Shown here: piece by piece, positions 1,566-49,355 of the stretch
Position numbering within the stretch: the first letter of the stretch is position 1
Layout of the letters: each line of letters starts with the position of its first letter
DNA from: a virus
Lineage: Duplodnaviria > Caudoviricetes
Length of the DNA stretch: 54,665 nucleotides
Strand: one strand, 5' to 3'
IMG/VR virus record: IMGVR_UViG_3300020045_008445
Location: 1 to 54,665 of that record
Program-made: the position numbers and the translations under genes
Notes under the pieces: model-generated
Seen by the model: the letters and a program-made list of their open reading frames with translations, nothing else
Told to the model about the DNA's origin: nothing
Databases searched by the model: none

Positions 1566-1602
1566 AAATACGTTATTTAGAATGGTTCTAAATAACGTAT
1601 TT
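1566..1602. promoter_or_regulatory. Perfect 17-bp inverted repeat containing a Fur-box-like operator (ATTTAGAATGGTTCTAAAT)
   Basis: aaatacgttatttagaa-tgg-ttctaaataacgtattt; near-identical core at 16405-16423. Confidence 0.65.
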
Positions 1603-1639
1603 GCTGTAAATGTGTAATTTACTTTCTTAAATTTGCTAT

Positions 1640-1867
1640 ATGGGTTTTATAGCATTTCTATTTTTTGTACTTGTTTTTGGCGGCTGGGCCGTTGGCAAAT
1701 TAATCGGCAATATATTTTTTCCTGAACGCAACACCGGGGGTTATATCGACCGTTCCGTACATCATCACCATCATCACCATACGCATACGCATCAAAACCT
1801 TACTGTTATAGATGATGAAACCCATAAGCGTGCGCTGAAACAGGCTAAGAAAAATCTTAATACCTGA
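1640..1867 (+). CDS. Small membrane protein with poly-His tract (moron)
   Basis: N-terminal hydrophobic helix, HHHHHHHTHTH; opposite strand to tail genes; TAAATTTG -7 element at 1628-1635. Confidence 0.7.
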   Translation: MGFIAFLFFVLVFGGWAVGKLIGNIFFPERNTGGYIDRSVHHHHHHHTHTHQNLTVIDDETHKRALKQAKKNLNT

Positions 1868-3920
1868 TAAACCCACCTTCGTATTCTACCAATGCCGGGA
1901 TTTCTGTACTACTTTCATTAAAGCCATAAGCGCCATTTTCATTACTGTAAACGCCGCCGGTTTTTGTCATTTTAGCTTTTACAACATAAAGGTTGCTTTG
2001 CTCCAGCGGCCCTTCTACTTCAGGCAAAGAGTTCATAACATATTGCACACTGTCAATACTTACAATTTCATGCGATAATGCCATAACAATTTTACGCATT
2101 ATCTCTTTTGTTACAGGCTCAAATGTAAATTCATCTGATTCGTAAAGGTCAACTTTGCTTAGCCTGGTCGTGGTGTCTGTTCGCTGCATTTCACTCTCTC
2201 CATCTACAAGGCCGCCCACTTTAGTAAATAATTGGCGTATCCTGTGTGAAATACCGGTAGCATAATAAACATCGTTGTTGGTTAGGTTTTTATATGATAT
2301 ATCCAAGGTTCCGGCATGCCTTACCTTTACTGAAATAACCTCAGATAAATGCTGCAGGTCGGTAAATAAAGAATCCTCGTTATCGATGCGAACCCTTATA
2401 TCTTCATTGATAAAGTTTACCATATCGATGGTAAACTCGTAAATCTCATAGTTGAAGATATTGTAAATTGTGCTTACAATAATACTTACAGGAGCGCCAC
2501 CATAAGGGACCTCCAGCACAATTATATCAGCCCCGTACACATCATCATAGTAAATTTCTGAAACCTGGAACCACGCATTGTCTATCATAAATGAAGTGCC
2601 GAAAGTGGCCCAGTATGGCAGCGCCCCGTTTAAAGCATAATTACCGGTTGGCACGCCTGTATCGTAGTCATAGGTTTGGCCTGATTCAAAATAAATACCG
2701 GTTTTATTGTTCCCTAAATCTACTTTTATAGCATCACGGCTATCTTTAACTCCCATGTAATTTGATTTCTTAAGCACAGGGATATCCGTTTCGGCCCCGA
2801 TATCTTCATTAATTACGGTTGCAGTATTTACGGCATAATTGCTTTTAAACTGCGTGGTAATAATATCTGCAGTCTGGAACTGCTGAACCTCCATATAAGG
2901 CAAAGGCACATTTACTTCACAGCTTAGTGTATTTTCATCATTCTTATAGTTGGCAGCATCACCGAAAGTAATCCGATTTGCAAACCGGATACTGTTTGAC
3001 TTTGAAATATAAAAATACGGTGCCTGGCCTGCGCCAAATTCAGATATTGTGAAAGGCTTGTATTTCACGCACCCAAACTGATCTTTAATGTACAGCCAAA
3101 AATTACCTGGCAACAACCCTGTGAATAGATACCCATCGCTATATTCATCATCGGTAGGCACGTCCCCCGGCAATACAAAGATGTATTTAAAAATAAGGCC
3201 GTTTTGATTTGTATTCGATATAATGATCGTTGCACCGTTCGGGCTGTTATTTACATTTATCGTGTGGTTTTCCGGCGCTATCGATGCAGGTGTTTCAAAT
3301 GCCTGGGTTATAGTTATGGGCTGGGCCTGCGTGCTTTCTAAAATGATGTTTCCGGTGGTGCCGCGTAAATATTCAAAGTTAAATACCGCCGCGTTTACAT
3401 TTGTTGCTGTTACCGGCGAATACACATTTTTGATATTTATATTTGTGGTAACCCGAACTTTTACATGGGTGCATTTTTTTGCAGTATCATCCGGGACAAG
3501 GTATTCTATGCTTTCAATTAAAAAAGGTGTGTTGTTATTGTTGAATGCAAACGAGAATACCACATCGGCACCGCTTGGCCCTGGTCCAAAAGCATAACCG
3601 CTTTCCCATGTGTAGCCCGAAACATTTCCGTAATTTGAAATTATGGTAACCACATTTAAAGCACGGCTTACCTGGTGCTGGCCGGTGCCATTCATGTCAA
3701 GATTAAAGGCTGCAACAAAGTTAATGGCCGTGCGCTCCCCTATCGTATCAGTTGGCGTACCTTTTGTAACTTTATACGGGGCGTTACGCAAAGTGTCCCA
3801 CGTCCATGCCGGGTTAAGGCTTACGGTATTTATACCGTTCGAATATTGCCCGATAAGGCCTAATACTGAACCTTCTTTAAGGTCTTCGTTAAAAGTGATC
3901 GTTATTATATTTCCGGCCAT
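1857..3920 (-). CDS. Minor tail / tail-tip structural protein
   Basis: 687 aa, beta-rich, second gene after tape measure. Confidence 0.6.
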   Translation of the reverse strand: MAGNIITITFNEDLKEGSVLGLIGQYSNGINTVSLNPAWTWDTLRNAPYKVTKGTPTDTIGERTAINFVAAFNLDMNGTGQHQVSRALNVVTIISNYGNVSGYTWESGYAFGPGPSGADVVFSFAFNNNNTPFLIESIEYLVPDDTAKKCTHVKVRVTTNINIKNVYSPVTATNVNAAVFNFEYLRGTTGNIILESTQAQPITITQAFETPASIAPENHTINVNNSPNGATIIISNTNQNGLIFKYIFVLPGDVPTDDEYSDGYLFTGLLPGNFWLYIKDQFGCVKYKPFTISEFGAGQAPYFYISKSNSIRFANRITFGDAANYKNDENTLSCEVNVPLPYMEVQQFQTADIITTQFKSNYAVNTATVINEDIGAETDIPVLKKSNYMGVKDSRDAIKVDLGNNKTGIYFESGQTYDYDTGVPTGNYALNGALPYWATFGTSFMIDNAWFQVSEIYYDDVYGADIIVLEVPYGGAPVSIIVSTIYNIFNYEIYEFTIDMVNFINEDIRVRIDNEDSLFTDLQHLSEVISVKVRHAGTLDISYKNLTNNDVYYATGISHRIRQLFTKVGGLVDGESEMQRTDTTTRLSKVDLYESDEFTFEPVTKEIMRKIVMALSHEIVSIDSVQYVMNSLPEVEGPLEQSNLYVVKAKMTKTGGVYSNENGAYGFNESSTEIPALVEYEGGFIRY

Positions 3921-3927
3921 GATGCTG

Positions 3928-14223: not shown

Positions 14224-15306
14224 TTATGCCTGTGTTACGGTTGAATCAAGTACATAGATGGCATCTACGCCACCTATAACCGGAGCTACACGGGCAGCTG
14301 CTGCAGTAACCTCTTTAAGAGATGGTGTATTGTTCCTGTATTTAGAAACCAATGTGTACTGGTTTGCTGTTTGGTACTCAACACCTGCAACGGGGTGGTT
14401 CATTTCTGCAAGCTTAGCCCATGCAAGGGTGCCTACATTGGTAGTATTCAGGAATACTATCGAACCTGTTTTCCAAGGCTTAACAGATGTGATGGTTTTA
14501 TCCTTCTGATACCTTATACTTCTGTTTACTTCCTGGAATACAAAACCGTATTTATCCTGTACCGCGGTGTTAAGCGCAGAAAGAGTAGGTACAATAAGGT
14601 TTGTTCCAGCAAAGCCTATAGCATACGCGGCAAGCTCTTTAGCTTCGGTAGAACGAAGTATGCCGTTAAGCGTGGCCCTGTCAAGCATCGCTATAGTTGG
14701 AGAGTTACCGTCTGCATCTGCCTTATCAAGCAATTCCTGCATATCTGTAAAAGGTGTTGAATCAGCATCCGTGAAGGGTATTGTTGATTCAAATTTATTT
14801 GCAGTAGGGTAATTGTAGTTAAGGCGCACGGATGTACCCACATTGTCAGCATCCGGAATTTCGGTTATGCCTGAAGATAAACCTTCAAGGAATATAGCCT
14901 CATTTCTTTCGTCTATACCCCCTATAACTCTCGGTGTATCTGCAAAAAGCTTTTGCAGTATCAAACTTTCATCTGCTCCGGTAGCCACAAGCGTATCCAA
15001 AGCCGTAAGCTGTGTTTCATTAAGGTGTAGTTCCATACCTTGCTTAGGTATTTTACCATCGCTACTTGAAACAGTAGGCCTAGATTTAAGGGGTAGAGAT
15101 GCATCCATAGCTACCACATCGGCAGCTACAAGAAATCCATTAGATGAAATAGATTCCCATTTTCCATCTACAGAAAACTCAGGCGTTAGCATGGTTTTGT
15201 GAAGATAAGTTAGCGCCCTTTTTTCGCCGTTAAGCGTCTCCGTAACCGAAATTACTATGCCGGGAAAATACTTTTTTACCCAGTCAATAAATAATGATTC
15301 TTCCAT
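14224..15306 (-). CDS. Major capsid protein (lambda E-like, HK97 fold)
   Basis: 360 aa after scaffold and decoration genes; AADVVAMDASLPLKSR motif. Confidence 0.82.
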   Translation of the reverse strand: MEESLFIDWVKKYFPGIVISVTETLNGEKRALTYLHKTMLTPEFSVDGKWESISSNGFLVAADVVAMDASLPLKSRPTVSSSDGKIPKQGMELHLNETQLTALDTLVATGADESLILQKLFADTPRVIGGIDERNEAIFLEGLSSGITEIPDADNVGTSVRLNYNYPTANKFESTIPFTDADSTPFTDMQELLDKADADGNSPTIAMLDRATLNGILRSTEAKELAAYAIGFAGTNLIVPTLSALNTAVQDKYGFVFQEVNRSIRYQKDKTITSVKPWKTGSIVFLNTTNVGTLAWAKLAEMNHPVAGVEYQTANQYTLVSKYRNNTPSLKEVTAAAARVAPVIGGVDAIYVLDSTVTQA

Positions 15307-15704
15307 TAGTCTGCTCTTTGGTCGATTAGTGGCATAGCAGTTTTAAAAGCCGCTGCAATTGTAGCGAAGTCATAAGGTGCTGCCACCGGGTTAATAGTTC
15401 CGTTTACTACAATACTGGCCATTGGCAGCGCAGATTCTACAGTAGCCCTTAAAGCTCCCGCATAAGTGTGCCCAGAAGGTAGCGTTGCGTAAGCTGTAGC
15501 ACCACCGTTTACCGGCATTGGCTTGTATTCGCCTGTAGCGGTTTCTTTTATAATGACATGTCCTGCCTGTATCTTGGTTGGTGTGAATCCAGTTACATCG
15601 AGTGTACGGCCTCCGCGAATCTCGGCAAAAACATCTTTCCAGACTATGGAGTCAAATCCATCGCTAAAAATCTTAGCGGCTGAAGTCAAATTAGCATATG
15701 CCAT
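15306..15704 (-). CDS. Head decoration protein
   Basis: 132 aa between scaffold and capsid; GGRTLDV..IQAGHVI..Y.P pattern. Confidence 0.7.
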   Translation of the reverse strand: MAYANLTSAAKIFSDGFDSIVWKDVFAEIRGGRTLDVTGFTPTKIQAGHVIIKETATGEYKPMPVNGGATAYATLPSGHTYAGALRATVESALPMASIVVNGTINPVAAPYDFATIAAAFKTAMPLIDQRAD

Positions 15705-15719
15705 TTTTCTTAGTTTTTG

Positions 15720-16346
15720 TTAATTAGGTACAATGGTTTTTACAACATCTTTAATCACATCAGCATCCGCTTTAGCAGCACTCGTAGTTACAGGAGGCTT
15801 GCCGCCTGTAGGTGTAACATTAGCAATGTGCTGATACGTTTCTGTAAACTCTGTTTCAAGTCCTTTAACCTGGTCTTCAAGTGGAGTTTCCGAATTGACA
15901 TCAGCTCGGTTAATCCATGCTTGTTTAACAGCAGGCGGAAGTGCTTTAAGCGTTTCAGAAGCTTCAAACAATTCGGCGACAGTTTGCCTTTTGGTTTCCG
16001 TTACCTTTCCCGCTTCGATGTTGTTTACCTTTTCAATTAGGGTTTTTGCCCATGCAGGTGCATCGTCCGGGGCGGGTGCCGGCGCAGGTGGATCATTACC
16101 CGGTGGCGTGTCTTTTTTAGCCTTTGCCTCTAAGGTTCGCATCTTATCGTCATCTTTGGCGATATCTTCAAAACTCATAAAGTCATTAGCTGCATCAAGG
16201 ACAGCATCAACGGCATCATCATCTGCATCATCAGCAGGCTTGGTTGCAAGTTTAGCCGCAAGCGCGTCTAACCTCTCTTTAGATAAGTTAGCCTTAGGGT
16301 ATTTAGCCTTAAGTCTTGCCTTAATTTTTTCTGGTGTAACTGCCAT
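15720..16346 (-). CDS. Capsid scaffolding protein
   Basis: Acidic/Pro-rich with PAWAK motif; first gene of head operon. Confidence 0.7.
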   Translation of the reverse strand: MAVTPEKIKARLKAKYPKANLSKERLDALAAKLATKPADDADDDAVDAVLDAANDFMSFEDIAKDDDKMRTLEAKAKKDTPPGNDPPAPAPAPDDAPAWAKTLIEKVNNIEAGKVTETKRQTVAELFEASETLKALPPAVKQAWINRADVNSETPLEDQVKGLETEFTETYQHIANVTPTGGKPPVTTSAAKADADVIKDVVKTIVPN

Positions 16347-16381
16347 TCTGTAAATAGTTTGTGATTAAATACTTTGAATGA

Positions 16382-16389
16382 CAAATATA
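16382..16389 (-). promoter_or_regulatory. -7 promoter element (TATATTTG) for head operon
   Basis: TAnnTTTG ~35 nt upstream of scaffold ATG. Confidence 0.6.
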
Positions 16390-16402
16390 TAAAATAATTC
16401 CG

Positions 16403-16425
16403 TTATTTAGAATGTTTCTAAATAA
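16403..16425. promoter_or_regulatory. Fur-box-like palindrome TTATTTAGAA-TGT-TTCTAAATAA
   Basis: 10-bp perfect inverted repeat between divergent -7 elements (16382-16389 and 16437-16444). Confidence 0.65.
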
Positions 16426-16465
16426 GCTTTTTATAATATATTTGTAGAAATTAAATTATAACATC

Positions 16466-16739
16466 ATGAAAAGATTATTTTTAAGCCTGGCGCTGGTTGC
16501 CTGCATGTGTTTTGCGGTTGAAGTATCTGCAAAAGAGAAGAAGACTGTTATTAAAGAAGTGCCGGAATTGCACGCCATAGCCAGTAACGCACCCTAAGGC
16601 GGCTTTTATCCTGCCTGAGGTGTCAGAATATGAGTGCCTGATATTATCCTTTGAAGAAAGTAAATTATCTGAGGGTATTCAAAAAGAAAATAGCAGATCA
16701 GTTAGCATCCATCTAAAATACAAAAAGCCTGAACTCTAA
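16466..16739 (+). pseudogene. Small secreted moron protein, apparently frameshifted
   Basis: Signal peptide MKRLFLSLALVACMCFAVEVSA; stop at 16595-16597, but a shifted frame stays open to TAA 16737-16739 at the terminator. Confidence 0.5.
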
Positions 16740-16754
16740 ATTCAGGCTTTTTTT
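16722..16754. terminator. Bidirectional intrinsic terminator
   Basis: aaaaagcctgaa-N7-ttcaggcttttttt between convergent genes. Confidence 0.8.
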
Positions 16755-16762
16755 GTGGGGAG

Positions 16763-17769: not shown

Positions 17770-18219
17770 TTAAAATTTATGTTCTTCTTTGGGCAGCTTG
17801 CAGGTTGGCGACTTGAAGAAGATGTTACTTCTCATGGCACAACCGCAATCAAGCGTAATGCTTTTTTTTAAAGGAATAGGCTGATTCATTATACCGTCAA
17901 TTCTTTCCTGCTCAACAATGTCTGATGCTTTAGTATCCTGAACAGAATATAACGTCTTAGATAATTTTTCTATATCATCAACATTTAAAGCCTGATTTTT
18001 TATAAAGTCTATTCTGGCTTTAGCATCAAACTCCATAGACTTTACCGCATTCAACTGCTCATAAACATAGATCATTCCCCGGGCCCAGGTTGGCAGGTCT
18101 TTGGATGGCTGTGTTTGATTCTTAACGCTATCAAGTGTCAAACCTACAATCTCAGCAATATCTTTGTTCTTTAGCCCTAAATCTTTCTTTAGCCGCTTCC
18201 AGTTTTCGTGTGTGTACAT
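17770..18219 (-). CDS. HTH (XRE-like) transcriptional regulator
   Basis: LKKDLGLKNKDIAEIVGLTLDSVKN helix-turn-helix; C-terminal CxC..C..H. Confidence 0.7.
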   Translation of the reverse strand: MYTHENWKRLKKDLGLKNKDIAEIVGLTLDSVKNQTQPSKDLPTWARGMIYVYEQLNAVKSMEFDAKARIDFIKNQALNVDDIEKLSKTLYSVQDTKASDIVEQERIDGIMNQPIPLKKSITLDCGCAMRSNIFFKSPTCKLPKEEHKF

Positions 18220-23954: not shown

Positions 23955-24158
23955 TTATACTTTATTCACAGGCTTTAATACCTGTAGTTCTACTTTAAGA
24001 CCTTTGGTTATTATCATACGGTCGCGTGCTTTGGCTGCATCTATCTCGGTAAGGTGAGAACCGCAATTGTATGTTATGCCGGCGCTTCTAACGATGGCAA
24101 GATATGTGCGGTTAAACGGGGTGCCTTTAGCCGATACGCCTCTGTAAGTTTTAGCCAT
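23955..24158 (-). CDS. Stand-alone AP2-like DNA-binding protein
   Basis: YRGVS...YLAIV...GSHLTEIDAAKARD matches the AP2 pattern. Confidence 0.6.
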   Translation of the reverse strand: MAKTYRGVSAKGTPFNRTYLAIVRSAGITYNCGSHLTEIDAAKARDRMIITKGLKVELQVLKPVNKV

Positions 24159-24294
24159 GGCGTACTGATTTATCTTTTATAATAAGCTCAATGCTATTAT
24201 CTTCCAAGGCATCCATAAGCGCACAGCCAATCAATTCATGATTTACAGTCTCTTTACCTTCAACAAACACACGGCCATCTTTAACCTCTATCAT
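24151..24294 (-). CDS. Small hypothetical protein (47 aa)
   Basis: MIEVKDGRVFVEGKET...; overlaps next start. Confidence 0.5.
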   Translation of the reverse strand: MIEVKDGRVFVEGKETVNHELIGCALMDALEDNSIELIIKDKSVRHG

Positions 24295-29106: not shown

Positions 29107-30009
29107 TTAAAAATTACACACGCATCCAGGTTCTTCCATTTCGTCGGTTTCTAACCTGATTTGCGTATCGTTCTCTGCTATTTTTATAAGGTCGTCAAGT
29201 GAGTAATTTTCCCTAAAAAACATATTGCCGTATAACTCTTCTTGAGTTCGGAAAAAGTTTTTTGTTTCCTCTCTAATTCCATGCTTAATTCGGGCGATAA
29301 GATTGCTTAATGGTGCTTTATGGCATAACTCACAATTATCAAGTTTGGAACTTATCTGTAGCCTAAAAGGTTGAGTGTCGAAATATTCTGAAAGTTGACG
29401 AAGTCCCACTGGAACATCGTAATCAGTAAGCAGCGGGGCTATTCTTGTGCCATCTTCTCTAAGCTCAGCCCATGTAATACGTTTTGGCATATCTTCTTTC
29501 CTGTAACCAATAGCTTTTAAGTAACTTGCAGTCCCAAATATTGTTCGCGCAAAAGAATGTGATACCCGAGTTTTAGTGTACTCAGAGCAGTAAGGAATTG
29601 CCTGATTAAAAACTCCATGCCATACAAATTTATTCATGTGCCTGATAGCGCCTTTAAGCGGTTCACTGGTCATATTTAAATCTGCAAAATCATTTATCAC
29701 CTTATGCCTTACCCCGATACCTTCTTCCAACGAATAAACACCCTCCAGCATTACTAATGGTAGCCCCCAATAATGCACCATATCTTTCAAAAACTGTATA
29801 GTTTCAGGTTTTTCCTGTCCTGTATTACAGAAAACAAATAGCTTTTCATAGTGTGCGTAATCGGGTGAGGTTTGAATATGCCTTGCCATCATTGCGCTGG
29901 AACGCCCCCCCGACACGGCCACCAGCAAATAATTATTATCAGGCGCAGGCTTAGCTATCTTTTTCTTTTTTTCTTTAGGGACTTCAACTGTGCCAAATAA
30001 TGTTTCCAT
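29107..30009 (-). CDS. PAPS-reductase-like (PP-loop) protein
   Basis: VAVSGGRSSAMM, FCNTGQE, C..C and C-terminal CxC. Confidence 0.8.
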   Translation of the reverse strand: METLFGTVEVPKEKKKKIAKPAPDNNYLLVAVSGGRSSAMMARHIQTSPDYAHYEKLFVFCNTGQEKPETIQFLKDMVHYWGLPLVMLEGVYSLEEGIGVRHKVINDFADLNMTSEPLKGAIRHMNKFVWHGVFNQAIPYCSEYTKTRVSHSFARTIFGTASYLKAIGYRKEDMPKRITWAELREDGTRIAPLLTDYDVPVGLRQLSEYFDTQPFRLQISSKLDNCELCHKAPLSNLIARIKHGIREETKNFFRTQEELYGNMFFRENYSLDDLIKIAENDTQIRLETDEMEEPGCVCNF

Positions 30010-32234: not shown

Positions 32235-32518
32235 AATCCGATCTCTTCTTTTATATGCTGCAATGTGCGCCAGTTGGCAGAAAGCCCCGATGGTATTTTA
32301 CCCTCATTATCCAGCACATTGAACATGGGTTTTTTATCTTTATTCGCGGCCATAAATACCCAGTATTGGCCGTGTGGCACATAGTACTGGGCTTTGTAAT
32401 GTTCCTTTACAGGCCGCCCATCGTTAAGCATATCTATAAGCACATTTGCGCTTACAACAACTACCGTTTCATCAAACATTGGCAGCAGACTTAACTGGGT
32501 TCGGTTATGGGGTTTCAT
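32231..32518 (-). CDS. Hypothetical protein
   Basis: ATGA-coupled. Confidence 0.5.
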   Translation of the reverse strand: MKPHNRTQLSLLPMFDETVVVVSANVLIDMLNDGRPVKEHYKAQYYVPHGQYWVFMAANKDKKPMFNVLDNEGKIPSGLSANWRTLQHIKEEIGL

Positions 32519-35423
32519 GCTCTAAAATGTCAAACAGGCTCGGAACATTTATTTTGTACTCAATGGATTTTAAGTAAAACAAACCATCATCGTAGTAATC
32601 CGGGTTAAGCTCAGCAGATATCGCCTTACGGTTCATTTCAAGTGCGGTATAAGCGGTAGAAAATAAACCTCCGAAAGGATCATCTACTACATCGCCCTCG
32701 TTGGTAAATCTGTAAATCAATCGCTTTATGATGTCGAGCTGCAGGGGGCAAATGTGCTTTTCCTTTTTACGATTCGCCTGGTTTGCATTTAGCGTGTTCA
32801 TACGGTTAATGTCTGTCCACACAAGATCATTTCCGCTTGTAGGTGGGATAGTCATAAACAGCTTAGAAAGTTTGCCATTTTTGTCAAGATCTTCACATAC
32901 TCTCAGGTGTTCCTGAAAATCGTAAATTGCTTTTTTGTCGTAATCCCTCCAAACATTAAAGATGGTTTTCATATCGGCGGTAAGCATTTCCTGTGAACTT
33001 AGAAAACGGTCGCCGCTGGACTTCCAGTAAGCGTGCGCGTCGAGCTGCCAAAGCGATAACAGGTATTCATCAATCTTTTTGACAACAGGGTCATCAGCGT
33101 AGGCGTTATTACTTTCAGTAGGAGATTTGCGAAATAGCAAAACATATTCAGGCAATCCAACTCCCATTTTAGTAGCATCTTTGCGCTGCTCTCCCCATGT
33201 AAGGCGGTAGGTCTGGTTATTCTCCCGCACTACATCGGTAGTGATGGTAATCTTACCTACAAGATGGAAGCGATTTTTATAATCAGCCTCAAGGCTTATA
33301 AGCTGATATTTAAGGTAGCTTATTTTCTTTAATTTACTTTTTAGTAATTGATAAGACAAATTAGGTTTTGATCTGATAAAATTTTCAATTTCATCTATTT
33401 CATCTTTTATGAGGTCTATTTTAAGCTTTACTTTATCTTTTGTAAAGTGCGAAACCGTACGGCCAGAGAAGTCTTCAATGCTGGTAAAAGACGTACCATT
33501 TTGGTAACTGTAACGAATCCTGTCTTTAACGTGTATAGCAGCAATGCGCCCCGGCTTAAGAGTACGCAGCAGGTGCGGTGTCAAGTAATCCATTTGCTTA
33601 AAAAACTCTTCATTGCCGTGATTGTGGCCGAAGTCGTTGTAATTGTCGCTGTACTCGTAATGGTCGCCAAACGGGATTGATGTAAGTATCATGCCGGTAG
33701 AATTATCGGGCATATCTTCATGAACCCTTACCGTATCGTTGTTGTAAACTGTAGCACCCCCTATAACGGCCATGCGCGGCTTTTCAAATATTTGTCTTTT
33801 CATATCTGCAGTTACTTTGTCGGAGTTAAGGCCGTACTCCCGGACCAGGTTTATCATTTCGGTTTGTAATTCAATATGCTTTTTCCACTTTTCTTTAAGC
33901 GTTTTAAGTACCTCCCTTTCATTGTTTGTAAATATGGCATATACATTTACCTCAAAGGCTTGTTTAAAGCGGTACAGCCGGTGTATGGCCTGTATGAAAT
34001 CATTGAATTTATAATCAATACCCACAAATATCATGTTGTGGCAGGCATGCTGGAAGTTGCATCCTGAACCTGCTATTTTTGGCTTAGTACTTAAGAACTG
34101 GTATTCTTTGTGCTTGAAGCCAATTAGAAGATCTTCTTTTTCTTTATTGGTTTGGGAGCCGTAAACAGATCGTAAATCGGCGTTGGTGCCTTTTGTGGCT
34201 TTAAGTATTTCGATCTCATGTTCAATTTCTCCATATTCCTCTGAAAGCTCTGCAAATTGTTTACTGCTTTCAAGTCTTTCAAGCTCTGACTTAAGCCACT
34301 TATCAAAATTGAATCGCTTTTCAATAGCAGTTCTTTCAGCCTCCAGGTGATGCCATAATATCCAATTATCATCTGGTGCGTTTTCCTGAACAATATCAAA
34401 GGCTTTTTTCACGCGGATATCTACCGTGGAAGATTTCTCCCGGCTGGTGTCAACAAGGCTTTTTGTAGTGTCTTTAAACAATACTATTTTGCCCTCTTTG
34501 TTGGTAATCACATCATCCGGTAGGTTTTCAATCTCAACCTCATTGAAGTTTAGTTTTGGCAGGTTGTAACCGGTGTCATCATAACCAAGATCAGAAGGCT
34601 TATTGATAAATACCGCCCATGTAGAAACCCATTTCCAAAACTCTTCTTTTTTGTTAGGGTATAAAGTAAGGTGTCCGGCCTTTGTACTGTCCCTTTGAAA
34701 GAAACGTGTAAGAGCATGGCCACGGTCAATTACTCCAAGGTAATCTGCATAGTTTAAGATTTCAATAAAGTCGTTAGGCGTAGGTGTGGCTGTGGCAACT
34801 AATCTGTAAGGCACATCTTTAAAGCGCTTCAGTATAAAATTTGTAGTTTCAGTTTTAAGGTTACGTAAAACAGATGCCTCATCGAGGGATGTACCTCCAA
34901 AATAATCAGGGTCAATATCCCCTTTTCGGATACGTTCGTAATTCGTTACATAAATAGCCTTTTCAAAATTAAAATCAATTGGATTTTGAGAACCTAAAAC
35001 ATTGATATAATTTTCAGTTAAGCTCTCAATATCGCCATGCAATTCGTTTTCCACAGCTATGATAACTTTTTGCTCAGCATTTTTTACAGGCAGACTATCT
35101 GTGTCTGATATATACCTAATTTCATATCCGGTATTCAGCATTTCGTTATCTTCTCTGAACTCTCCTACAACACCTAACGGCATCCCAATAAGAAAAGGCT
35201 TTCCAGTGATGCCTATAACCATCCGTGCATACTCAAGCTGCATCACTGTTTTACCAAGCCCAAAGCTTGCGAATATTGCACGTCGCCCTCCACATAAACA
35301 CCATAACACAATATCCGTCTGGTGGGGTAATAATAGAGGGTTTAAATATTTTCTATCTATTTCGCAGCCAAAGGTGCCGGCTGCTACAATTTTGCTTTCC
35401 AAAAATGCAGTGTAATCTTGCAT
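32505..35423 (-). CDS. SNF2-like helicase fused to N4/N6 DNA methyltransferase
   Basis: GLGKT, DEAS, TATP, HRLYRF helicase motifs; TSIPF and DPFGG methylase motifs; ATG at 35423 preferred. Confidence 0.85.
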   Translation of the reverse strand: MQDYTAFLESKIVAAGTFGCEIDRKYLNPLLLPHQTDIVLWCLCGGRRAIFASFGLGKTVMQLEYARMVIGITGKPFLIGMPLGVVGEFREDNEMLNTGYEIRYISDTDSLPVKNAEQKVIIAVENELHGDIESLTENYINVLGSQNPIDFNFEKAIYVTNYERIRKGDIDPDYFGGTSLDEASVLRNLKTETTNFILKRFKDVPYRLVATATPTPNDFIEILNYADYLGVIDRGHALTRFFQRDSTKAGHLTLYPNKKEEFWKWVSTWAVFINKPSDLGYDDTGYNLPKLNFNEVEIENLPDDVITNKEGKIVLFKDTTKSLVDTSREKSSTVDIRVKKAFDIVQENAPDDNWILWHHLEAERTAIEKRFNFDKWLKSELERLESSKQFAELSEEYGEIEHEIEILKATKGTNADLRSVYGSQTNKEKEDLLIGFKHKEYQFLSTKPKIAGSGCNFQHACHNMIFVGIDYKFNDFIQAIHRLYRFKQAFEVNVYAIFTNNEREVLKTLKEKWKKHIELQTEMINLVREYGLNSDKVTADMKRQIFEKPRMAVIGGATVYNNDTVRVHEDMPDNSTGMILTSIPFGDHYEYSDNYNDFGHNHGNEEFFKQMDYLTPHLLRTLKPGRIAAIHVKDRIRYSYQNGTSFTSIEDFSGRTVSHFTKDKVKLKIDLIKDEIDEIENFIRSKPNLSYQLLKSKLKKISYLKYQLISLEADYKNRFHLVGKITITTDVVRENNQTYRLTWGEQRKDATKMGVGLPEYVLLFRKSPTESNNAYADDPVVKKIDEYLLSLWQLDAHAYWKSSGDRFLSSQEMLTADMKTIFNVWRDYDKKAIYDFQEHLRVCEDLDKNGKLSKLFMTIPPTSGNDLVWTDINRMNTLNANQANRKKEKHICPLQLDIIKRLIYRFTNEGDVVDDPFGGLFSTAYTALEMNRKAISAELNPDYYDDGLFYLKSIEYKINVPSLFDILEHETP

Positions 35424-35496
35424 AATGTAGGTTTGTTTAGCAAATATGGTCGGGCAAATCAAAGTGCGATTTACCGCTATAGGATTATTTTATAAG

Positions 35497-36306: not shown

Positions 36307-37359
36307 TTAAGATTCTTTATTAAAATATACAAGATAATAGTACATCTGCTTTTCTTCGTCCCAGCCTTTTTCTACATACTGCTCGGCGCTTTGAGGGTTC
36401 ATAAAGTCCAGCTTTATAGTGATGTTGGTATCAAGATTGATAACAGGCTTAATCTTCTTACAGGCATCGGTTACCGCGCTGTTTGATATCGGGAAGCTGC
36501 TCACGTCTTCAATGCTGTACTTCGGCGCTTTCTCAACCTTATAGTTTTTGAACTCCGGCAGCAAATCAGGATTGTCGAGTACTTCATTAAGAAAGGCGCT
36601 TTCTTCAAACTCATCGTTTTTGGCAAAGTAGTTTACCGACCGATTCATAAACATTACCTCTTCTTTTTTGTCTTCAGCAGGCAGTACCACATCTTTTGCA
36701 AAGTCCTGAACGAACTTCATATATTTTTTAGTCAGGAAGTTTTCATCCTGCGATACATCCACGCCAAGGAAATGTTCTAACCAGTAGCGGGAATCATATT
36801 TGTTCTGGTCGATGGTCAATATTTTATAACCATCTTCGGCCTTGTAGTTGAATATGATGCAGCCTTTGTCAAGTTTGTTAAGCGATATGCCCTGCTGCAA
36901 AATAAGTTCAAGGTTATCGGCCTTTTCATCAAACTGGATAAAGTCTGATTTAATCTCTGATTTGAAAATACCTACAGCATCAACAGGGTTATTGTCAATG
37001 GTCAGGTTGGAGATATGCAGCACATAAATTTCGCCTGATTTGATGTGTGGGTGGTTCGACTGATCAAACAGATGCTCGGTAATTTTACGGGAAACAGCAT
37101 GCGTGTTACCTGGATTTGTAAAAATGTCTTTTGCAAAGTTGAACATGAAGTGATAATCTAAATGCACATCGTGGGCAAACTGAAAATAGTTTTCTTCTTT
37201 GTCGCGGAATGGCTTAAAAAAGTACTCTTTTAGCAGCGGGGTAATTTCATCGTTTAGCCTGTAAGGTTCAGCAGATAAGAATATGCTTTCGTTCCTGCTT
37301 TTGTTCCCAATTCTGTGGATTGAGATACTGTTTATCTGGGCATTGAATAAGTTTATCAT
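36307..37359 (-). CDS. Nucleoid-associated protein (NdpA/YejK family), host-like
   Basis: SIHRIGNK, QSNHPHIKSGE, KLDKGCIIF, YWLEHFL; resembles the Flavobacterium chromosomal gene. Confidence 0.85.
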   Translation of the reverse strand: MINLFNAQINSISIHRIGNKSRNESIFLSAEPYRLNDEITPLLKEYFFKPFRDKEENYFQFAHDVHLDYHFMFNFAKDIFTNPGNTHAVSRKITEHLFDQSNHPHIKSGEIYVLHISNLTIDNNPVDAVGIFKSEIKSDFIQFDEKADNLELILQQGISLNKLDKGCIIFNYKAEDGYKILTIDQNKYDSRYWLEHFLGVDVSQDENFLTKKYMKFVQDFAKDVVLPAEDKKEEVMFMNRSVNYFAKNDEFEESAFLNEVLDNPDLLPEFKNYKVEKAPKYSIEDVSSFPISNSAVTDACKKIKPVINLDTNITIKLDFMNPQSAEQYVEKGWDEEKQMYYYLVYFNKES

Positions 37360-38291: not shown

Positions 38292-39242
38292 TTAATTTCT
38301 TAGGCTTTTGCCTTTTAATTCAATGATATTGAACATTTCAAAACACCTGTCGTAAACCCTGTTACCGTATTTAGCGCTCATGGCCTGCATTGTTTCAAGT
38401 GATGATAATTGTTCGCTATTTTCAACCGCATAGTTTAGGCTGGCCATGGTTCTTTTACGTCCATCATATCTGAACTTTAGAATGTCTTCAAAAATTTCTA
38501 CTTTGCCGTAGTTGCTGGCCTGTCTCTCAGTCATCAGGTCATCAAAATATAGCCACCCGTTTTTCATTGTGTTCCAAAAACGGTCTTTTTGCTGCTGGTC
38601 TGAGCATCCTTCAAACATCTGCACCACATCTATAGCAGAGAAATAGCCAAACTTCCTACGGTACCGGTGCAACAAAACATCATCGCCGTCTACATCTTTA
38701 ACCGTGATGTTGTTATCTCGTTCAGCATCAAAGAATAACTTCTTAAGAGCCTTGAATACTGATGTTTTACCACATCCATAGTCCCCAAAAACTAAAAGCC
38801 CTTTCATAACGTGCGGCTCATTTATGGTTTTATTTAACAAAGGGCTATCCATGAACTTTATATTGTTGAAGAAGTAGTAAATAAGCGTAAAAGCCAATAT
38901 TTTAGTTTCCCCGTTATTTGCTTTAGGATCAAATATATTGCCCGTTACATCAAAGTATTTTTCTTTAAATGCATTGTAAACGCTTAAGAAATCTACTTCT
39001 GCTAATGGTTTTAGTGGCTGTTTTGAATCCGGTTCTTTCGCTGGCCTCTGGCTGTCCCAGTAATCATTCCAAGCCTTAAAGTCAGCTTCATAACGCAATA
39101 CCAAATTATGCTCAGGGTTGGTTTTCTTTAGCATGTCGTAGGTAGACGGTCTTCTTGGATGCCTGGGAACATCTGCCGGTAAATTTAATTTATCGATTAC
39201 TGTGGAAATTTGCTCTGGTTCCTGTGGCTGTTGATTTTCCAT
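38292..39242 (-). CDS. DnaC/IstB-like ATPase (helicase loader)
   Basis: GDYGCGKT, FDDL..E, YGNRVYDR..EMFN.IEL.GKSLR. Confidence 0.82.
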   Translation of the reverse strand: MENQQPQEPEQISTVIDKLNLPADVPRHPRRPSTYDMLKKTNPEHNLVLRYEADFKAWNDYWDSQRPAKEPDSKQPLKPLAEVDFLSVYNAFKEKYFDVTGNIFDPKANNGETKILAFTLIYYFFNNIKFMDSPLLNKTINEPHVMKGLLVFGDYGCGKTSVFKALKKLFFDAERDNNITVKDVDGDDVLLHRYRRKFGYFSAIDVVQMFEGCSDQQQKDRFWNTMKNGWLYFDDLMTERQASNYGKVEIFEDILKFRYDGRKRTMASLNYAVENSEQLSSLETMQAMSAKYGNRVYDRCFEMFNIIELKGKSLRN

Positions 39243-39990
39243 TTTCAGTTTTTTTGTTTGTTATCGCATCGAAATGAGAACTAAGATTTTTAAGCAGGAA
39301 ATTGCTTTGCATCCAGGTGTCTGCCCATGCATTCGCCAAAAACTTATCAAGCGACCTTTTGGCAATATCTTCAGTCCATTCTATTTTTTTTGATTCTGAC
39401 AATTTTTGAAGTCTTGTAACAATGCTTTTAAAGCTTTTAGCTGATACGCCGTCAAATGTTGGTTTTGATTTAAATTCTTTTTCGTAGAAAGTAAGCCACA
39501 CATCAATTAAAATATGCCAATACAAAACCTCAATTTCTTTTTTCGCTGGCGGCTTGCCGTCAGAATGAGATTTAGATAATTGTTTTTGTTTAGTTTTGTT
39601 TAGTTTATTTATTGTATCAGCAACCGTATCAGCAACCGTATCAGCAACCGTATCAGCAACCGTATCAGCAACCGTATCAGCAACCGTATCAAATTTTGAT
39701 ATGGTTAACAGTTTATAAATAGTACTTCCGTCTAAACCTTTCGAAGCTTTATCAGGCGTTTTAAAGTCTATTAGTCCAAGTTGCTTAAGCTTGTTTTTAG
39801 ACGCTCTTACAGTGTTAACAGATATACCTAATTGAATAGCTATATATCTATCGGAATGCTTAAATGTTTCCTTCCAGCCTAATGAGTTGCATACTTTTAC
39901 AAGATAAAAGTAGAGCGCAATTCCATTACAACCGATTGGAATTTCAGTATTGCATGTCCAAAACTGTTTTATTAGTTCTATGTAGTTCAT
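39190..39990 (-). CDS. Replication initiator protein
   Basis: N-terminal wHTH (ALYFYL...N..GW), internal 12-bp repeats, upstream of loader. Confidence 0.8.
   Translation of the reverse strand: MNYIELIKQFWTCNTEIPIGCNGIALYFYLVKVCNSLGWKETFKHSDRYIAIQLGISVNTVRASKNKLKQLGLIDFKTPDKASKGLDGSTIYKLLTISKFDTVADTVADTVADTVADTVADTVADTINKLNKTKQKQLSKSHSDGKPPAKKEIEVLYWHILIDVWLTFYEKEFKSKPTFDGVSAKSFKSIVTRLQKLSESKKIEWTEDIAKRSLDKFLANAWADTWMQSNFLLKNLSSHFDAITNKKTENGKSTATGTRANFHSNR
39614..39691. repeat. 6.5 x 12-bp tandem repeat GTATCAGCAACC (probable origin iterons)
   Basis: Perfect repeats encoding (DTVA)6 inside initiator, next to an A/T-rich tract. Confidence 0.85.
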
Positions 39991-47082: not shown

Positions 47083-47089
47083 ATAATTG

Positions 47090-47614: not shown

Positions 47615-47623
47615 TACTTCTAT

Positions 47624-47835: not shown

Positions 47836-47888
47836 CGCAGCGGTTTGTCATAATCTTTTAGAGTTGGATTTAAGGTTATTATATCGTG

Positions 47889-48116: not shown

Positions 48117-48129
48117 GATGCAGGATAAT

Positions 48130-48339
48130 TTATGTGTTGTAGAAAAGCATTGCTGCCCTGTCTTGTATGTGGTACTGTTGATGTTTGCCCTGCTCCTGCA
48201 TTCTCAGTGTTTGCAGGCGGTTAAAAAGCCTCATGAACTGCATTAGCTTTTTGCCTGTGTAAAGGTTAATGGCCTTTAAGTATTGGATGTAGGCAATGCG
48301 TTTGTTGATAGTGTCGAGTGTGGTTACTGGTGTTTTCAT
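48130..48339 (-). CDS. Early hypothetical protein
   Basis: 69 aa. Confidence 0.55.
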   Translation of the reverse strand: MKTPVTTLDTINKRIAYIQYLKAINLYTGKKLMQFMRLFNRLQTLRMQEQGKHQQYHIQDRAAMLFYNT

Positions 48340-48341
48340 TA

Positions 48342-48611
48342 TTATTGAGTTTTTAAATAGTCGTTTAAAACCTGGATAATGGCATCTTGCTTGGCGGCCG
48401 GGAAGCTTTCCATATGGAACCAGTTGATGCGGATTGTTGAAGGTGATACGCTTAGTTTTGGTGCTGCGTACTTGAAAAATGATGTGTGAACCTGAACATT
48501 TTTGAAAAGTTCTAAAATTAATTCAGGCTTAGTTTTTTCTTTAGCATCCCCAATAGCAGGTATTTTTACAGCTTTTGGCATTTGTTTAACGTTTAATATT
48601 TCTGCTTTCAT
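48342..48611 (-). CDS. Cro-like regulator
   Basis: Divergent from cI; AAPKLSVSPSTIRINWF HTH-like segment. Confidence 0.6.
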   Translation of the reverse strand: MKAEILNVKQMPKAVKIPAIGDAKEKTKPELILELFKNVQVHTSFFKYAAPKLSVSPSTIRINWFHMESFPAAKQDAIIQVLNDYLKTQ

Positions 48612-48644
48612 ATCTTTGCGCTGTTGTTGTTATTGTTTCTAACT

Positions 48645-48734
48645 GAGAACAAATATAGAGAACATTTTGAGAACAAAAAAACTTTTGCAGAACAATTTGA
48701 GAATTTATTTCTTATTTAAATTAATTATAAATAA
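48645..48734. promoter_or_regulatory. Immunity control region: -7 element for cro, five (G/C)AGAA(C/T) direct repeats, degenerate Fur-like box
   Basis: caaatata 48650-48657; repeats at 48645, 48658, 48669, 48688, 48699; ATTTA-N9-TAAAT at 48714-48732. Confidence 0.6.
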
Positions 48735-48747
48735 AAATTAGCTATTA

Positions 48748-49095
48748 ATGAATGCATTGCAAATAGCAGTAAATAAGCTTGGTATGCGTTTTCCCGGAAA
48801 ACAGCTAAGTCAAGATTTAAATATTTCCAAAGGCGTGGTATCGGAATACCTCAATGGCAAACGAGAATTAAGTGAGAATTTTAAAAGTAGTTTTCATAAC
48901 CATTATGGCATTGATTTAGATAAAATCGATGTTAATGACCTGACGGAAGATTTAAAAGATGATGAAGTTGCTGAATATATTTATCAAAACATTGACAGAC
49001 TAAAGAGTAATAAACGATTTAGAATGTGGTTTGACTACGAAATAGAAAAGGCCAAAAATGACCTTTTAATTAAGTTAGAAAGAAGTAGTAGATAA
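48748..49095 (+). CDS. CI-like HTH repressor (no peptidase domain)
   Basis: QLSQDLNISKGVVSEYLNGKRELS XRE HTH; divergent from cro. Confidence 0.8.
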   Translation: MNALQIAVNKLGMRFPGKQLSQDLNISKGVVSEYLNGKRELSENFKSSFHNHYGIDLDKIDVNDLTEDLKDDEVAEYIYQNIDRLKSNKRFRMWFDYEIEKAKNDLLIKLERSSR

Positions 49096-49355
49096 GATTT
49101 TTGTAGTGAGCTTTTTTAAGAGGAGTTTATTTTCTTCTTTCAATTTTTTAGTTCTGGTTAAAAACTTTTTTGGGTCATAACGTCTCATTAATAATTTGGG
49201 TATAAATATTGTTGGTTAACTGGTGGTTGGCTCTAACAATAAGAACTGTAAAGCTAATCACTAAAACGTTATCGCAATTTATTATTGTATATTAAACACT
49301 TAATTTATTATACGTCTAAATAGTTAAAGGAATGTTAATTTAAAAACCAACCAAT

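Follow-up and report, generated by a model that had tools for sequence, protein, structure and literature searches.

Candidate host Fur operators at the late promoters and cI-like leader of a temperate Caudoviricetes phage

The window analyzed here is the whole 54,665-nt viral record IMGVR_UViG_3300020045_008445 (Duplodnaviria; Caudoviricetes). It holds two 23-bp palindromes, box 1 and box 2, separated by a stretch of 14.8 kb. Around box 1 the features are as follows.

1573..1595 (19-mer core 1575-1593), no strand: box 1, a Fur-type 23-bp palindrome between the tail-fiber/lysis promoter and the promoter of a divergent histidine-rich ORF; relatives carry syntenic copies
1553..1560, minus strand: -7 element TACATTTG of the predicted tail-fiber/holin/endolysin operon promoter, 14 bp from the 19-mer and 12 bp from the 23-mer of box 1
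1628..1635, plus strand: -7 element TAAATTTG of the divergent histidine-rich ORF, 34 bp from box 1
1640..1867, plus strand: histidine-rich ORF, 75 aa, with an N-terminal membrane helix and a histidine run
2..1528, minus strand, crossing the record ends into 53677..54665: tail-fiber-like gene, 838 aa in total, with its first 509 codons in 2..1528 and the rest in 53677..54665
53369-53677: holin gene, downstream of the tail-fiber-like gene
52831-53385: endolysin-like gene, downstream of the tail-fiber-like gene

With a 19-bp spacer, the -33 position of the tail-fiber promoter would read TTC and fall within the proximal half-site of box 1. On the divergent side, the ATG stands 4 nt past the -7 element, so the mRNA of the histidine-rich ORF would be near leaderless. 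The place and orientation of this ORF are kept in 33 of 60 sources; family searches found no family for it, and its best Protein Atlas score, 0.79, gave no usable lead. The idea that the tail-fiber protein is an iron-binding fiber was dropped, since HxH motifs are absent from the protein and there is thus no link to iron-binding fibers. The features around box 2 are these.

16403..16425 (19-mer core 16405-16423), no strand: box 2, a 23-bp palindrome 5' of the scaffold/capsid/tail operon
16382..16389, minus strand: -7 element TATATTTG of the predicted scaffold-capsid-tail operon promoter, 15 bp from the 19-mer and 13 bp from the 23-mer of box 2
14224..16346, minus strand: first genes of the operon, namely a scaffold-like gene (15720-16346), a 132-aa gene and the major capsid protein gene (14224-15306)
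after the major capsid protein gene, reaching down to 1857: tail genes, in the same operon behind box 2
16437-16444, plus strand: second -7 element TATATTTG, 13 bp from box 2
16466-16597, plus strand: 43-aa ORF with a lipoprotein-like signal

The 43-aa ORF was not seen in relatives, where a terminator-like hairpin takes its place. As the first-pass annotation had claimed, both boxes lie in divergent promoter regions, with plus-strand -7 elements at 1628-1635 and 16437-16444. The spacing of 12-13 bp that it gave to the minus-strand -7 elements holds for the 23-mers (12 and 13 bp) and not for the 19-mers (14 and 15 bp). Measured from the 19-mers, the boxes end 14-15 bp upstream of the near-consensus -7 elements and overlap the promoters, which are predicted by consensus only.

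Four palindromes had been proposed, at 1575-1593, 16405-16423, 48714-48732 and 49303-49321, and the window sequence bears out all four positions. They had been said to match 17, 17, 15 and 14 of the 19 positions of the Riemerella Fur box; a manual recount against the published consensus returned the same figures, and the consensus itself, ATTTAGAATTATTCTAAAT, stands in Table 5 of PMC5609570 in exactly the form given. In boxes 1 and 2 both mismatches to ATTTAGAATTATTCTAAAT are central. The observation of two strong palindromes is confirmed as real and far above chance. With up to three mismatches, ATTTAGAATNNTTCTAAAT has 7 strand-matches in the window against 0.91 ± 1.06 expected, a count reached in 0 of 100 shuffles, and the refined motif ATTTAGAATNATTCTAAAT has 3 (at 1575, 16405 and 48714) against 0.13 ± 0.34, with at most 1 per shuffle; the perfect 23-mer common to both boxes, TTATTTAGAA-N3-TTCTAAATAA, is matched twice against 0.00 expected. 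The consensus of the sites in the phage family is ATTTAGAATGATTCTAAAT.

The two weaker sites fared differently. The site at 49303-49321, assigned by the first-pass annotation to a secreted moron, is at chance level, with 4 mismatches to the refined motif by manual count and without comparative support. The other precedes a cI-like gene.

48714..48732, no strand: weak box, 3 mismatches to the refined motif, 15 nt 5' of the cI-like ATG
48748..49095, plus strand: cI-like repressor candidate, 115 aa, with a weak HTH_3 match

Taken alone, this site is not convincing, but it gains support from synteny: a box lies just 5' of a cI-type gene start in 7 of 7 relatives examined (overlapping the start in one), and these syntenic boxes match the motif better than the window's does. 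The cI proteins of the 7 relatives range from 132 to 257 aa and their operator-like repeats differ, while the box is unchanged; the window's own switch-region repeats are GAGAACA repeats at 48645-48705. A role for the box as the operator of the phage's own CI or Cro was rejected on this ground, the box being constant while cI and the switch-region repeats differ between relatives.

Relatives were gathered by a profile of a 759-aa structural protein, which yielded 60 records, 50 of them searched whole (L087-L095 and L002 left out). A capsid-protein search for related loci had returned 1 locus in genomes and 1 in viral contigs, and when 8 kb of the window was compared with cultured phages for near-identity, no match came up. 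The box, with up to two mismatches, is present in 28 of the 50 records, against 0 of 50 for a reversed-pattern control; it is held by 13 of the 20 records at least 90% complete, 11 of which have a pair 14.2-14.7 kb apart, much like the window's pair. Protein identity in the relatives is only 43-63%, and the 19-mer recurs at the same two places in relatives at no more than 45-55%. The element TAnnTTTG follows the box at 13-16 bp in 35 of 38 family sites, the distance being exactly 14 bp in 21 of them, while the spacer itself varies in sequence; on the divergent side, the relatives' box stands 33-35 bp from the -7 element of the histidine-rich ORF. Conservation of the motif's position, which the first-pass annotation had proposed as a check, is thus found at both late promoters and beside cI. 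Of the 20 near-complete relatives, 7 have no box, and the ones with structural proteins among those most similar to the window's belong to this group; some relatives have altered palindromes with a different half-site spacing, onto which a Fur dimer should not fit. In some relatives the boxes agree with the Riemerella Fur box at 19 of 19 positions, and viral contigs contain the exact box in at least 124 stretches, with widely varied surroundings.

For the host side of the question the evidence comes from stand-in Flavobacterium genomes. A match with at most one mismatch is present in 71 of 101 of them (108 matches, against 5 for the control). Thirty of the host loci were examined for their flanks: hemA with a divergent AraC gene (6), a cysteine desulfurase (class-V)/beta-lactamase-family gene type of locus (5, with the desulfurase itself seen in 3), multiheme cytochrome c (4), NqrA (2), TonB receptors (2), COX1, nuoA, class I fumarase, a thioredoxin-like gene, DoxX and a prophage-like locus (one each), and nothing recognized (5). 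This distribution shows the motif to mark a predicted host regulon in Flavobacterium, with many sites flanking iron-using genes. A looser pattern (N3 center, up to two mismatches) was uninformative in F. piscis, with 27 matches against 26 for the control. The host sites also differ in layout. At desulfurase promoters the box comes directly after the -7 element, that is, on the start site, and some host boxes lie 18-47 bp upstream of the -7 element; the phage spacing of 13-16 bp occurs at 0 of 29 host sites, so the phage layout has no host precedent. At the feoA promoters, examined in 30 Flavobacterium genomes, the -33 region has another palindrome, TGATAATTATCA or a variant of it, and no more than a degenerate box-like element lies at the start site, in 27 of 30 (manual count); feoA is therefore no clean test.

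One clear Fur-family gene was found in each of five Flavobacterium genomes, its product being closest to Fur in NCBIfam and PDB; the protein scores 71 bits on the Fur model, which is below the cut-off, and 43-45 bits on two Irr models with cut-offs of 150 and 170. The first-pass annotation had named Fur or PerR as the binder. A Fur-family host regulator is still the best reading, while a separate PerR is unlikely, given the single clear Fur-family gene in 5 of 5 genomes. Two Flavobacterium genomes with the window's exact 19-mer were considered as hosts of a close relative, and were set aside when the box region alone matched in one and nothing in the other.

The first-pass annotation had also foreseen that a phage-encoded regulator might bind the boxes instead. 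Such a protein is real in a cousin, the Polaribacter phage Danklef_1, and no Fur-family gene was found in the window: PF01475 against all six frames gave no match at E up to 10, and in a tblastn search with host Fur and the Fur-like proteins of the phages Danklef and G117, one short ORF alone matched. At a limit of 0.01, 49 of the 50 relatives likewise have no Fur-family match.

24151..24294, minus strand: ORF X, 47 aa, resembling the C-terminal 48 residues of the Danklef_1 Fur-family protein; candidate factor acting on Fur

The Danklef_1 protein has a Fur-family DNA-binding domain (Pfam FUR 32.4 bits, cut-off 23.1) and shares an RVSRAT stretch with host Fur. Danklef carries 3 boxes, among them boxes before portal and tail-fiber-like genes, at 3-16 bp from -7 elements (3-5 bp at 2 of the 3 sites). 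Since Danklef encodes its own Fur-like protein, a phage protein can be the binder in the wider group. In the relative G117, X is fused to a Fur-like winged helix, so that two phages join X to a Fur-like DNA-binding domain, one in the reverse order of the other. Counted over the near-complete relatives (at least 90%) and not corrected for kinship, 8 have both box and X, 5 the box without X, none X without the box, and 7 neither. A predicted complex of X with a Flavobacterium Fur scored 0.33, the best of 3 controls scoring 0.00 (own alignments, stand-in Fur); the runs agree in at least 95% of contacts, with partner pLDDT of at least 72. Of the solved complexes, 116 of 157 passed the mark used for such predictions, as did 2 of 215 mismatched pairs; with a score no higher than 0.60, only 18 of the 157 solved complexes passed it, and so did both of those mismatches. 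The prediction weakly favors X binding Fur. A profile comparison of X with Fur lends no support (probability 5%).

We consider it somewhat likelier true than false that the boxes are host Fur-type operators, on the late promoters and in the cI leader, bound by the host's single Fur-family regulator and probably repressing. No Fur-family gene being encoded in the window, the boxes are most likely bound by host Fur, and the virion production of a temperate phage of Flavobacteria-like hosts would then probably depend on a host metal sensor. At the late promoters box and promoter are interleaved, the -33 position lying within the half-site nearest the -7 element, so bound Fur would keep RNA polymerase off, and the capsid/tail and the tail-fiber/lysis operons would be repressed; at the weaker box in the cI-like leader the same regulator would damp repressor synthesis. 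The same box also stands 34 bp 5' of the promoter for the conserved small histidine-rich membrane protein. If Fur acts as in Riemerella, metal-bound and repressing, then in iron-replete cells cI would be damped and the late promoters shut. The late promoters may open once Fur is displaced, by falling iron, by titration on replicating phage DNA or by a phage factor such as X. The binding by host Fur, the sign of the regulation and what relieves it are points that we infer from sequence comparison. A lock made of Fur alone would have an iron-starved lysogen express its lysis genes, which suggests a further layer of control; none was found. The first-pass interpretation as a whole, of host Fur or PerR coupling iron or oxidative status to virion genes, a moron and possibly the lysis-lysogeny switch, is partly supported.

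An extension of the Fur-repression reading, which we hold to be unlikely, gives X a definite part: host Fur would lock the late promoters and damp cI, and X would bind Fur and either remove it or change its action. X itself seems to be a remnant of a Fur-like phage protein, derived from its C-terminal part. If this were true, X would open the late promoters at any iron level, with host iron uptake switched on as a side effect, and Danklef and G117, with a whole Fur-like protein each, would rely on their own binder in the same circuit.

Other explanations ascribe a different action, a different binder or no binder at all to the same sites. Since many host sites lie beside iron-using genes, activation by Fur is conceivable as well: Fur could act as an activator of late promoters poor in the -33 region, with virions and lysis produced only when there is enough iron, as an iron-sufficiency checkpoint. 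The box-to--7 spacing, nearly fixed at 13-16 bp despite the varied spacer, is consistent with such a role, as are the TTC in place of TTG at the -33 position, the iron-using genes beside host sites, which are expected to be on at plentiful iron, and the upstream placing of some host boxes and of the box before the histidine-rich ORF. However, the center of the box lies at about -36, over the -33 position, which would typically be a repressor's placing, and the close Danklef spacing of 3-5 bp also argues against it. The only tested boxes, those of Riemerella, work in repression, and activation by Fur would have the lysis genes turned on in a lysogen that grows with iron. We judge activation improbable. 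A slightly more doubtful alternative keeps the operator and changes its owner: the binder would be a phage-encoded protein, for example an unrecognized DNA-binding protein acting with X, and the likeness to the host box would descend from a phage Fur-like ancestor. The Danklef_1 domain with its RVSRAT stretch and three boxes, the X fusion in G117 and the co-occurrence of X with the box (8 of 13 near-complete relatives with it, 0 of 7 without) all speak for this, and a candidate lies at hand in a 67-aa ORF that overlaps the end of X, is found after X in 4 relatives and bears a weak likeness (E 0.0028) to a DNA-binding part of HNH endonucleases. Yet the Fur-family searches of the window returned X alone, five near-complete box-bearing relatives are without X, and an unrelated DNA-binding fold is not expected to read the very motif of a host regulon. 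An HTH-like 149-aa protein (17770-18219), tried as box binder, was rejected: it is present in 6 of 50 relatives, 5 of those without the box.

The boxes could also serve mainly as a decoy, replicating phage DNA titrating Fur so that host iron uptake and TonB receptors are turned on and promoter control is secondary. The density of consensus-grade sites, 2-4 per ~50-kb phage genome against ~1 per host genome (2-6 Mb) at the same stringency, would suit such a sponge, and so would the exact box in varied viral contexts. But a decoy needs no fixed place, whereas 35 of 38 sites keep their distance from a -7 element at two syntenic promoters, and 2-4 sites per genome make a small sponge; we regard this account as quite improbable. 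Least credible, and very improbable in our view, is that the palindromes are nucleic-acid hairpins, either terminating the upstream operons or serving as a structural signal, rather than protein sites. Box 1 with its flanks does fold to a 13-bp stem of -12.2 kcal/mol followed by a T-rich run on the minus strand; in several relatives the flanks lengthen the palindrome with different letters, and some relatives have a shorter palindrome made of the outer half-sites only. Against this stand the A+T-rich stems and the weak folding of box 2 (-6.2 kcal/mol), where an intrinsic terminator at an operon end would have a G+C-rich stem followed by a U run. The stem letters are invariant, do not co-vary and are identical to the host promoter motif; complementary flanks exceed expectation modestly (0.36-0.61 against 0.25-0.49), and the relatives have, ahead of box 2, a distinct G+C-rich terminator hairpin followed by a T run.

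Should the favored reading of repression by host Fur be true, the cell's iron state, or a phage factor acting on Fur, would gate the making of virus and perhaps also the lysis-lysogeny decision. Flavobacteriia are main degraders of algal-bloom carbon, in waters that are often iron-scarce, so such a link would bear on the timing of their killing and on the release of iron and carbon. The circuit could be tested with the cultured Polaribacter phages Danklef and Freya and with box-carrying Flavobacterium phages.

The nearest known system is that of Riemerella anatipestifer (Flavobacteriales), where, as in the window, the Fur box is a 19-bp palindrome in promoter regions that overlaps core promoter parts. 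There, the heme-uptake gene rhuH is reported to be derepressed by deletion of the box, by deletion of fur or by iron limitation (PMC11967795), and Fur to shift the rhuB promoter in EMSA (PMC10986502). Unlike the iron- and heme-uptake targets of Riemerella, the window's candidate Fur boxes stand at phage capsid/tail, tail-fiber/lysis and repressor promoters, and the host of this phage is not Riemerella. A second likeness is to the iron control element (ICE) TTTAGAA-N3-TTCTAAA, bound by Irr in Bradyrhizobium and other alpha-proteobacteria, with a regulon of suf, hemA, nuo, fumA and cytochromes on which Irr acts positively or negatively by position; PMC1698941, the source of this account, reports no ICE outside the alpha-proteobacteria. 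Boxes 1 and 2 have a core identical in every letter to the ICE consensus, and the kind of regulon is the same. But Irr binds at low iron and Riemerella Fur represses at high iron, and the Flavobacterium regulator fits the Fur model better than the Irr models, scoring below the cut-offs of both, with no Irr orthologue among the matches to these models. With an ICE core and no Irr orthologue, the system would work like ICE without being a member of it; as a by-product, the Riemerella-type Fur box is seen to define a Flavobacterium regulon of iron-using genes in the letters of Irr/ICE. Danklef_1 (Forsetiviridae), whose Fur-family protein is annotated in GenBank, is a distant relative, with 25-26% identity in the 759-aa protein, and differs in having its own Fur-like DNA-binding domain, where the window has none; a whole-word search of the main text of the Danklef paper found no mention of Fur or iron (PMC8776804).

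The literature searched contained no paper that places Fur at phage late or structural promoters. Late promoters that need a phage activator or antiterminator are familiar from P2 (Ogr), Mu (C) and lambda (Q). The window resembles these in that its head/tail and lysis operons stand behind a few conserved promoters, all of which carry a conserved element upstream, and differs in that the element is a host regulator's site and a phage late activator was not identified. Prophage cargo under host metal regulators is likewise familiar, with Fur at stx1 and DtxR at tox of corynephage beta. In those cases, too, a host metal sensor has its site on a temperate-phage promoter, but what is controlled is a toxin cargo gene and not morphogenesis, lysis or the repressor, and the site is not known to be a conserved part of late promoters. 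The arrangement proposed here would be different from such toxin-cargo control: a host Fur site in the promoters of head, tail, lysis and repressor genes, conserved in a family of Flavobacteriia phages.

All four Fur-box-type palindromes proposed in the first-pass annotation are present in the window, and its two strong sites, box 1 (19-mer core 1575-1593) and box 2 (core 16405-16423), stand far above chance. The two boxes have in common a perfect 23-mer, TTATTTAGAA-N3-TTCTAAATAA, and each lies close to a minus-strand -7 element: TACATTTG (1553-1560), 14 bp from box 1, and TATATTTG (16382-16389), 15 bp from box 2. The layout described earlier is thus retained, with its spacing of 12-13 bp corrected to 14 and 15 bp from the 19-mer. 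Bacteroidota promoters usually have a spacer of 19 bp, and with such a spacer the -33 position falls on the TTC within the box half-site nearest the -7 element. The other candidate promoters listed for the window (early leftward, 48650-48657; 24885; 19001) carry no box. An ORF for a 43-aa product that has a lipoprotein-like signal peptide (16466-16597, +) reads away from box 2, its -7 element 13 bp from the box; this ORF was not seen in relatives.

PHROG and Pfam scans of the window give the gene map of a temperate siphovirus transcribed mostly from the minus strand, with box 1 at the tail-fibre, holin and endolysin promoter and box 2 at the scaffold, capsid and tail promoter.

Features of the window
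from 48611: early region, recombination and replication genes (PHROG/Pfam)
after the early region, before the terminase genes: tRNA-Phe gene
22703 to 19135: small terminase, large terminase and portal genes (PHROG/Pfam)
16347-16762: gap ahead of the scaffold-like gene
after the gap, down to 1857: scaffold-like gene, major capsid protein, tail genes, tape measure, two large virion proteins
start at 1528: tail-fibre-like gene, then holin and endolysin-like gene
48748, plus strand: cI-like gene
49356, plus strand: secreted 324-aa protein
50770, plus strand: integrase

The record, 54,665 bp in length and covered in full by the window, is linear and 100% complete in the IMG/VR classification. The tail-fibre-like ORF runs from 1528 to base 1 and then, in frame, from 54665 to 53677 (838 codons, no internal stop); the record is therefore a circular permutation. 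Homologues of its 759-aa virion protein, approximately 50% identical, sit in records named Flavobacterium and Aquimarina, which makes a host within the Flavobacteriaceae probable. On the minus strand, three genes of cargo or replication type stand out: a 985-aa fusion of helicase and DNA methyltransferase (32505-35462), an NA37 homologue (37-kDa nucleoid-associated protein; 36307-37359), and a PAPS-reductase-like gene (29107-30009). A 12-nt unit (GTATCAGCAACC) is repeated in tandem approximately seven times at 39614-39697, within a replication-initiator-like ORF (39190-39990); these repeats are possibly origin iterons.

Scanning related phages for conserved position, a check proposed together with the four sites, finds the 19-mer at the same two syntenic promoters, one preceding the scaffold/capsid module, the second in the stretch that separates the last large virion gene from the tail-fibre gene. 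The related set comprised 59 viral loci gathered with a profile of the 759-aa protein, and the whole-record search covered 50 of 60 records. The box (two mismatches at most) was found in 28 of the 50 records, versus none of the 50 with the reversed motif as control. Twenty records reach a completeness of 90% or more; 13 of them have the box, and 11 of these 13 have a pair 14.2-14.7 kb apart. TAnnTTTG follows 13-16 bp beyond the box at 35 of 38 family sites (exactly 14 bp at 21), across a spacer of variable letters; in relatives, a G+C-rich, terminator-like hairpin precedes box 2. More widely, at least 124 stretches of viral contigs contain the exact box, and among 81 such sites examined, 12 have the late-promoter layout of the window's phage family, while the rest fall in other recurring contexts. 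Some relatives depart from the common form. Two loci, L054 and L082 (at approximately 14,990, and in L082 also at 193), carry a variant palindrome, TTATTTATAATTAATATAAATAA, 14 bp before TACATTTG, with symmetric changes at the box's G and C that may reflect a host whose regulator has another specificity. A shorter palindrome, ATTTAG-N-CTAAAT, takes the place of the 19-mer in L268 (genome G117), L052, L088, L090, L093, L095 and L057, with arms extended to 16 nt in one case.

On the opposite side, box 1 lies 33-35 bp from the -7 element of a small divergent gene (1640-1867, +, in the window), which was recovered by HMM in 33 of 60 sources, invariably at the place of box 1. Its start codon is only 4-5 nt past the -7 element, making it near-leaderless, and its product of 65-77 aa combines a histidine cluster with a membrane helix. 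Searches placed this ORF in no family and gave it no function; a role in metal binding would be in keeping with control by Fur.

Boxes also occur beside repressor genes. Seven relatives were chosen because they have a box outside the late pair; in every one of them this box precedes a cI-type gene, a few to approximately 25 bp ahead of its start codon (overlapping the start in one), and in two of them a second box follows 125-145 bp further on. These cI-type genes encode HTH_3, with Peptidase_S24 as well in five. The weak site at 48714-48732 in the window is probably a decayed member of this cI-adjacent set, since it sits 15 nt ahead of the cI-like ATG. Between the cro-like and cI-like genes (48645-48705) there are also five GAGAACA-like words, 11-19 bp apart, which flank the candidate early leftward -7 element TATATTTG (48650-48657, -) and are probably the phage's own operators. 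The reading put forward in the first-pass annotation is partly supported. Comparison speaks well for a Fur-type operator at the late promoters and next to cI; the site before the secreted protein gene (49303-49321) drops out, having more than three mismatches to the refined motif (four by count), a chance-level match with no support.

The Riemerella Fur box on which this reading was built agrees with the published motif. In PMC5609570, the motif is the RegPredict-predicted Fur box of Riemerella anatipestifer, and fragments carrying it were shifted by Fur; the abstract gives the E. coli consensus instead of the Riemerella box. Two further papers report that rhuH mRNA rises after deletion of the box in the rhuH/rhuR promoter, deletion of fur, or iron limitation (PMC11967795), and that a rhuB promoter with a one-mismatch box is shifted by Fur (PMC10986502). 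The rhuH and rhuB results thus indicate that a Flavobacteriales Fur-family protein reads the motif and represses when iron is available. In 101 Flavobacterium genomes, the motif with at most one mismatch gave 108 matches versus 5 for the reversed control, with at least one match in 71 genomes. The expectation that it would lie at host iron-related genes was borne out, as TonB receptor genes and iron- or haem-using functions adjoin most of 30 host sites (one of the 30 resembles the late promoter of a prophage, and beside five no gene was recognised). Each of five Flavobacterium genomes has one clear Fur-family gene. The approximately 3.4-kb loci around these fur genes hold no box with three mismatches or fewer, so there is no sign of fur autoregulation through the motif. 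On contig 3 of genome G014 (L128, L106), a perfect box (77548-77566) lies 2.4 kb from a fur gene (74770-75132). At the feoA loci of 30 Flavobacterium genomes (L007-L036), a different palindrome, TGATAATTATCA, occupies the -33 region (exact in seven, variants elsewhere), and a conserved element, ATCTAAATTCAATCTAAATAAG, lies directly past the -7 element; within a few kb to approximately 30 kb there is also a DtxR-like gene that includes a FeoA-type domain, and a second metal regulator may therefore operate at these loci.

What binds the boxes in this phage family can be narrowed by comparison. It is unlikely that the palindromes act as hairpins: their stem letters are invariant, with no co-variation, the stems are A+T-rich (-12.2 and -6.2 kcal/mol), and the excess of complementary flanks is modest. 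A role as the phage's own operator is ruled out, the seven relatives with cI-adjacent sites differing in cI and in operator-like repeats while the box is identical. The one HTH candidate tested was also rejected as binder, being found mostly in relatives that have no box. A phage-encoded regulator, named in the first-pass annotation as the alternative, has a basis outside the window. A 53-nt query around box 1 matched 163 cultured phage records, including 74 Flavobacterium, 17 Polaribacter and 7 Cellulophaga phages. Polaribacter phage Danklef_1 has, directly upstream of its small terminase gene, an annotated ferric uptake regulator family protein with a Pfam Fur DNA-binding domain (32.4 bits against a cut-off of 23.1) and an RVSRAT stretch in common with host Fur. 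The phage carries three boxes, two of them perfect. A whole-word search of the main text of its description (PMC8776804) found no mention of Fur or iron. Given this domain and these boxes, it would appear that a phage protein can read the box in the wider group. In the window itself, six-frame comparison gave no Fur-family match at E up to 10, and 49 of 50 relatives had none at a limit of 0.01, the sole match (15.6 bits) being below cut-off. With no phage Fur gene, the own-operator reading out, and the HTH candidate mostly in box-less relatives, host Fur would be the most economical binder.

A small phage protein may nonetheless take part. ORF X (24151-24294, -; 47 aa) is 46% identical to the last 48 residues of the Danklef_1 Fur-like protein (E 2.5e-5), and 15 of the 17 relatives with a homologue, among 50, are box-bearing. 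Among near-complete records, eight have box and X, five the box only, none X only, and seven neither (one-sided Fisher approximately 0.01, uncorrected for kinship). In G117 (L268:1270-1614, -), X is fused ahead of a Fur-like winged helix, and the box is replaced by a shorter palindrome that keeps just the outer half-sites; this points to a phage-encoded binder whose half-site spacing differs. Because X is linked to the box, to the Danklef_1 protein and to the G117 fusion, it may be a module acting together with a DNA-binding domain of the Fur type, in this phage the host's. Comparison of X with the Fur profile gave no support, and a complex predicted with a stand-in Flavobacterium Fur had weak support. 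X overlaps by 8 nt a 67-aa ORF (23955-24158, -) with weak likeness to the DNA-binding part of HNH endonucleases (phrog_99, E 0.0028), and the pair recurs near the small terminase gene in four relatives.

Since the box overlies the -33 position of both late promoters, a bound dimer would keep RNA polymerase out. If the half-site nearest the -7 element doubles as a weak -33 element, the near-fixed spacing would be accounted for; the phage spacing of 13-16 bp was found at none of 29 host sites. With the polarity seen in Riemerella, cI would be damped and the late promoters shut in an iron-replete cell; low iron, a phage factor, or replicating genomes that titrate Fur could lift this control. Under a simple lock, a lysogen starved of iron would switch on its lysis genes, which makes a further layer of control likely. 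The main rival is that Fur activates the late promoters: the host regulon includes many iron-using genes, a hint that Fur may activate as well as repress, and the sign at the phage promoters could therefore be either. That host Fur both binds the boxes and represses is, taken as one claim, slightly better than an even prospect.

In the literature searched, Fur was found at stx-type cargo genes only; no paper dealt with phage-encoded Fur proteins or placed Fur at the structural promoters of a phage. The host regulon has the make-up of the Irr regulon of alpha-proteobacteria, whose ICE consensus has identical core letters (PMC1698941). However, the Flavobacterium regulator differs from that system in being nearest to Fur and falling below the cut-offs of the Irr models.
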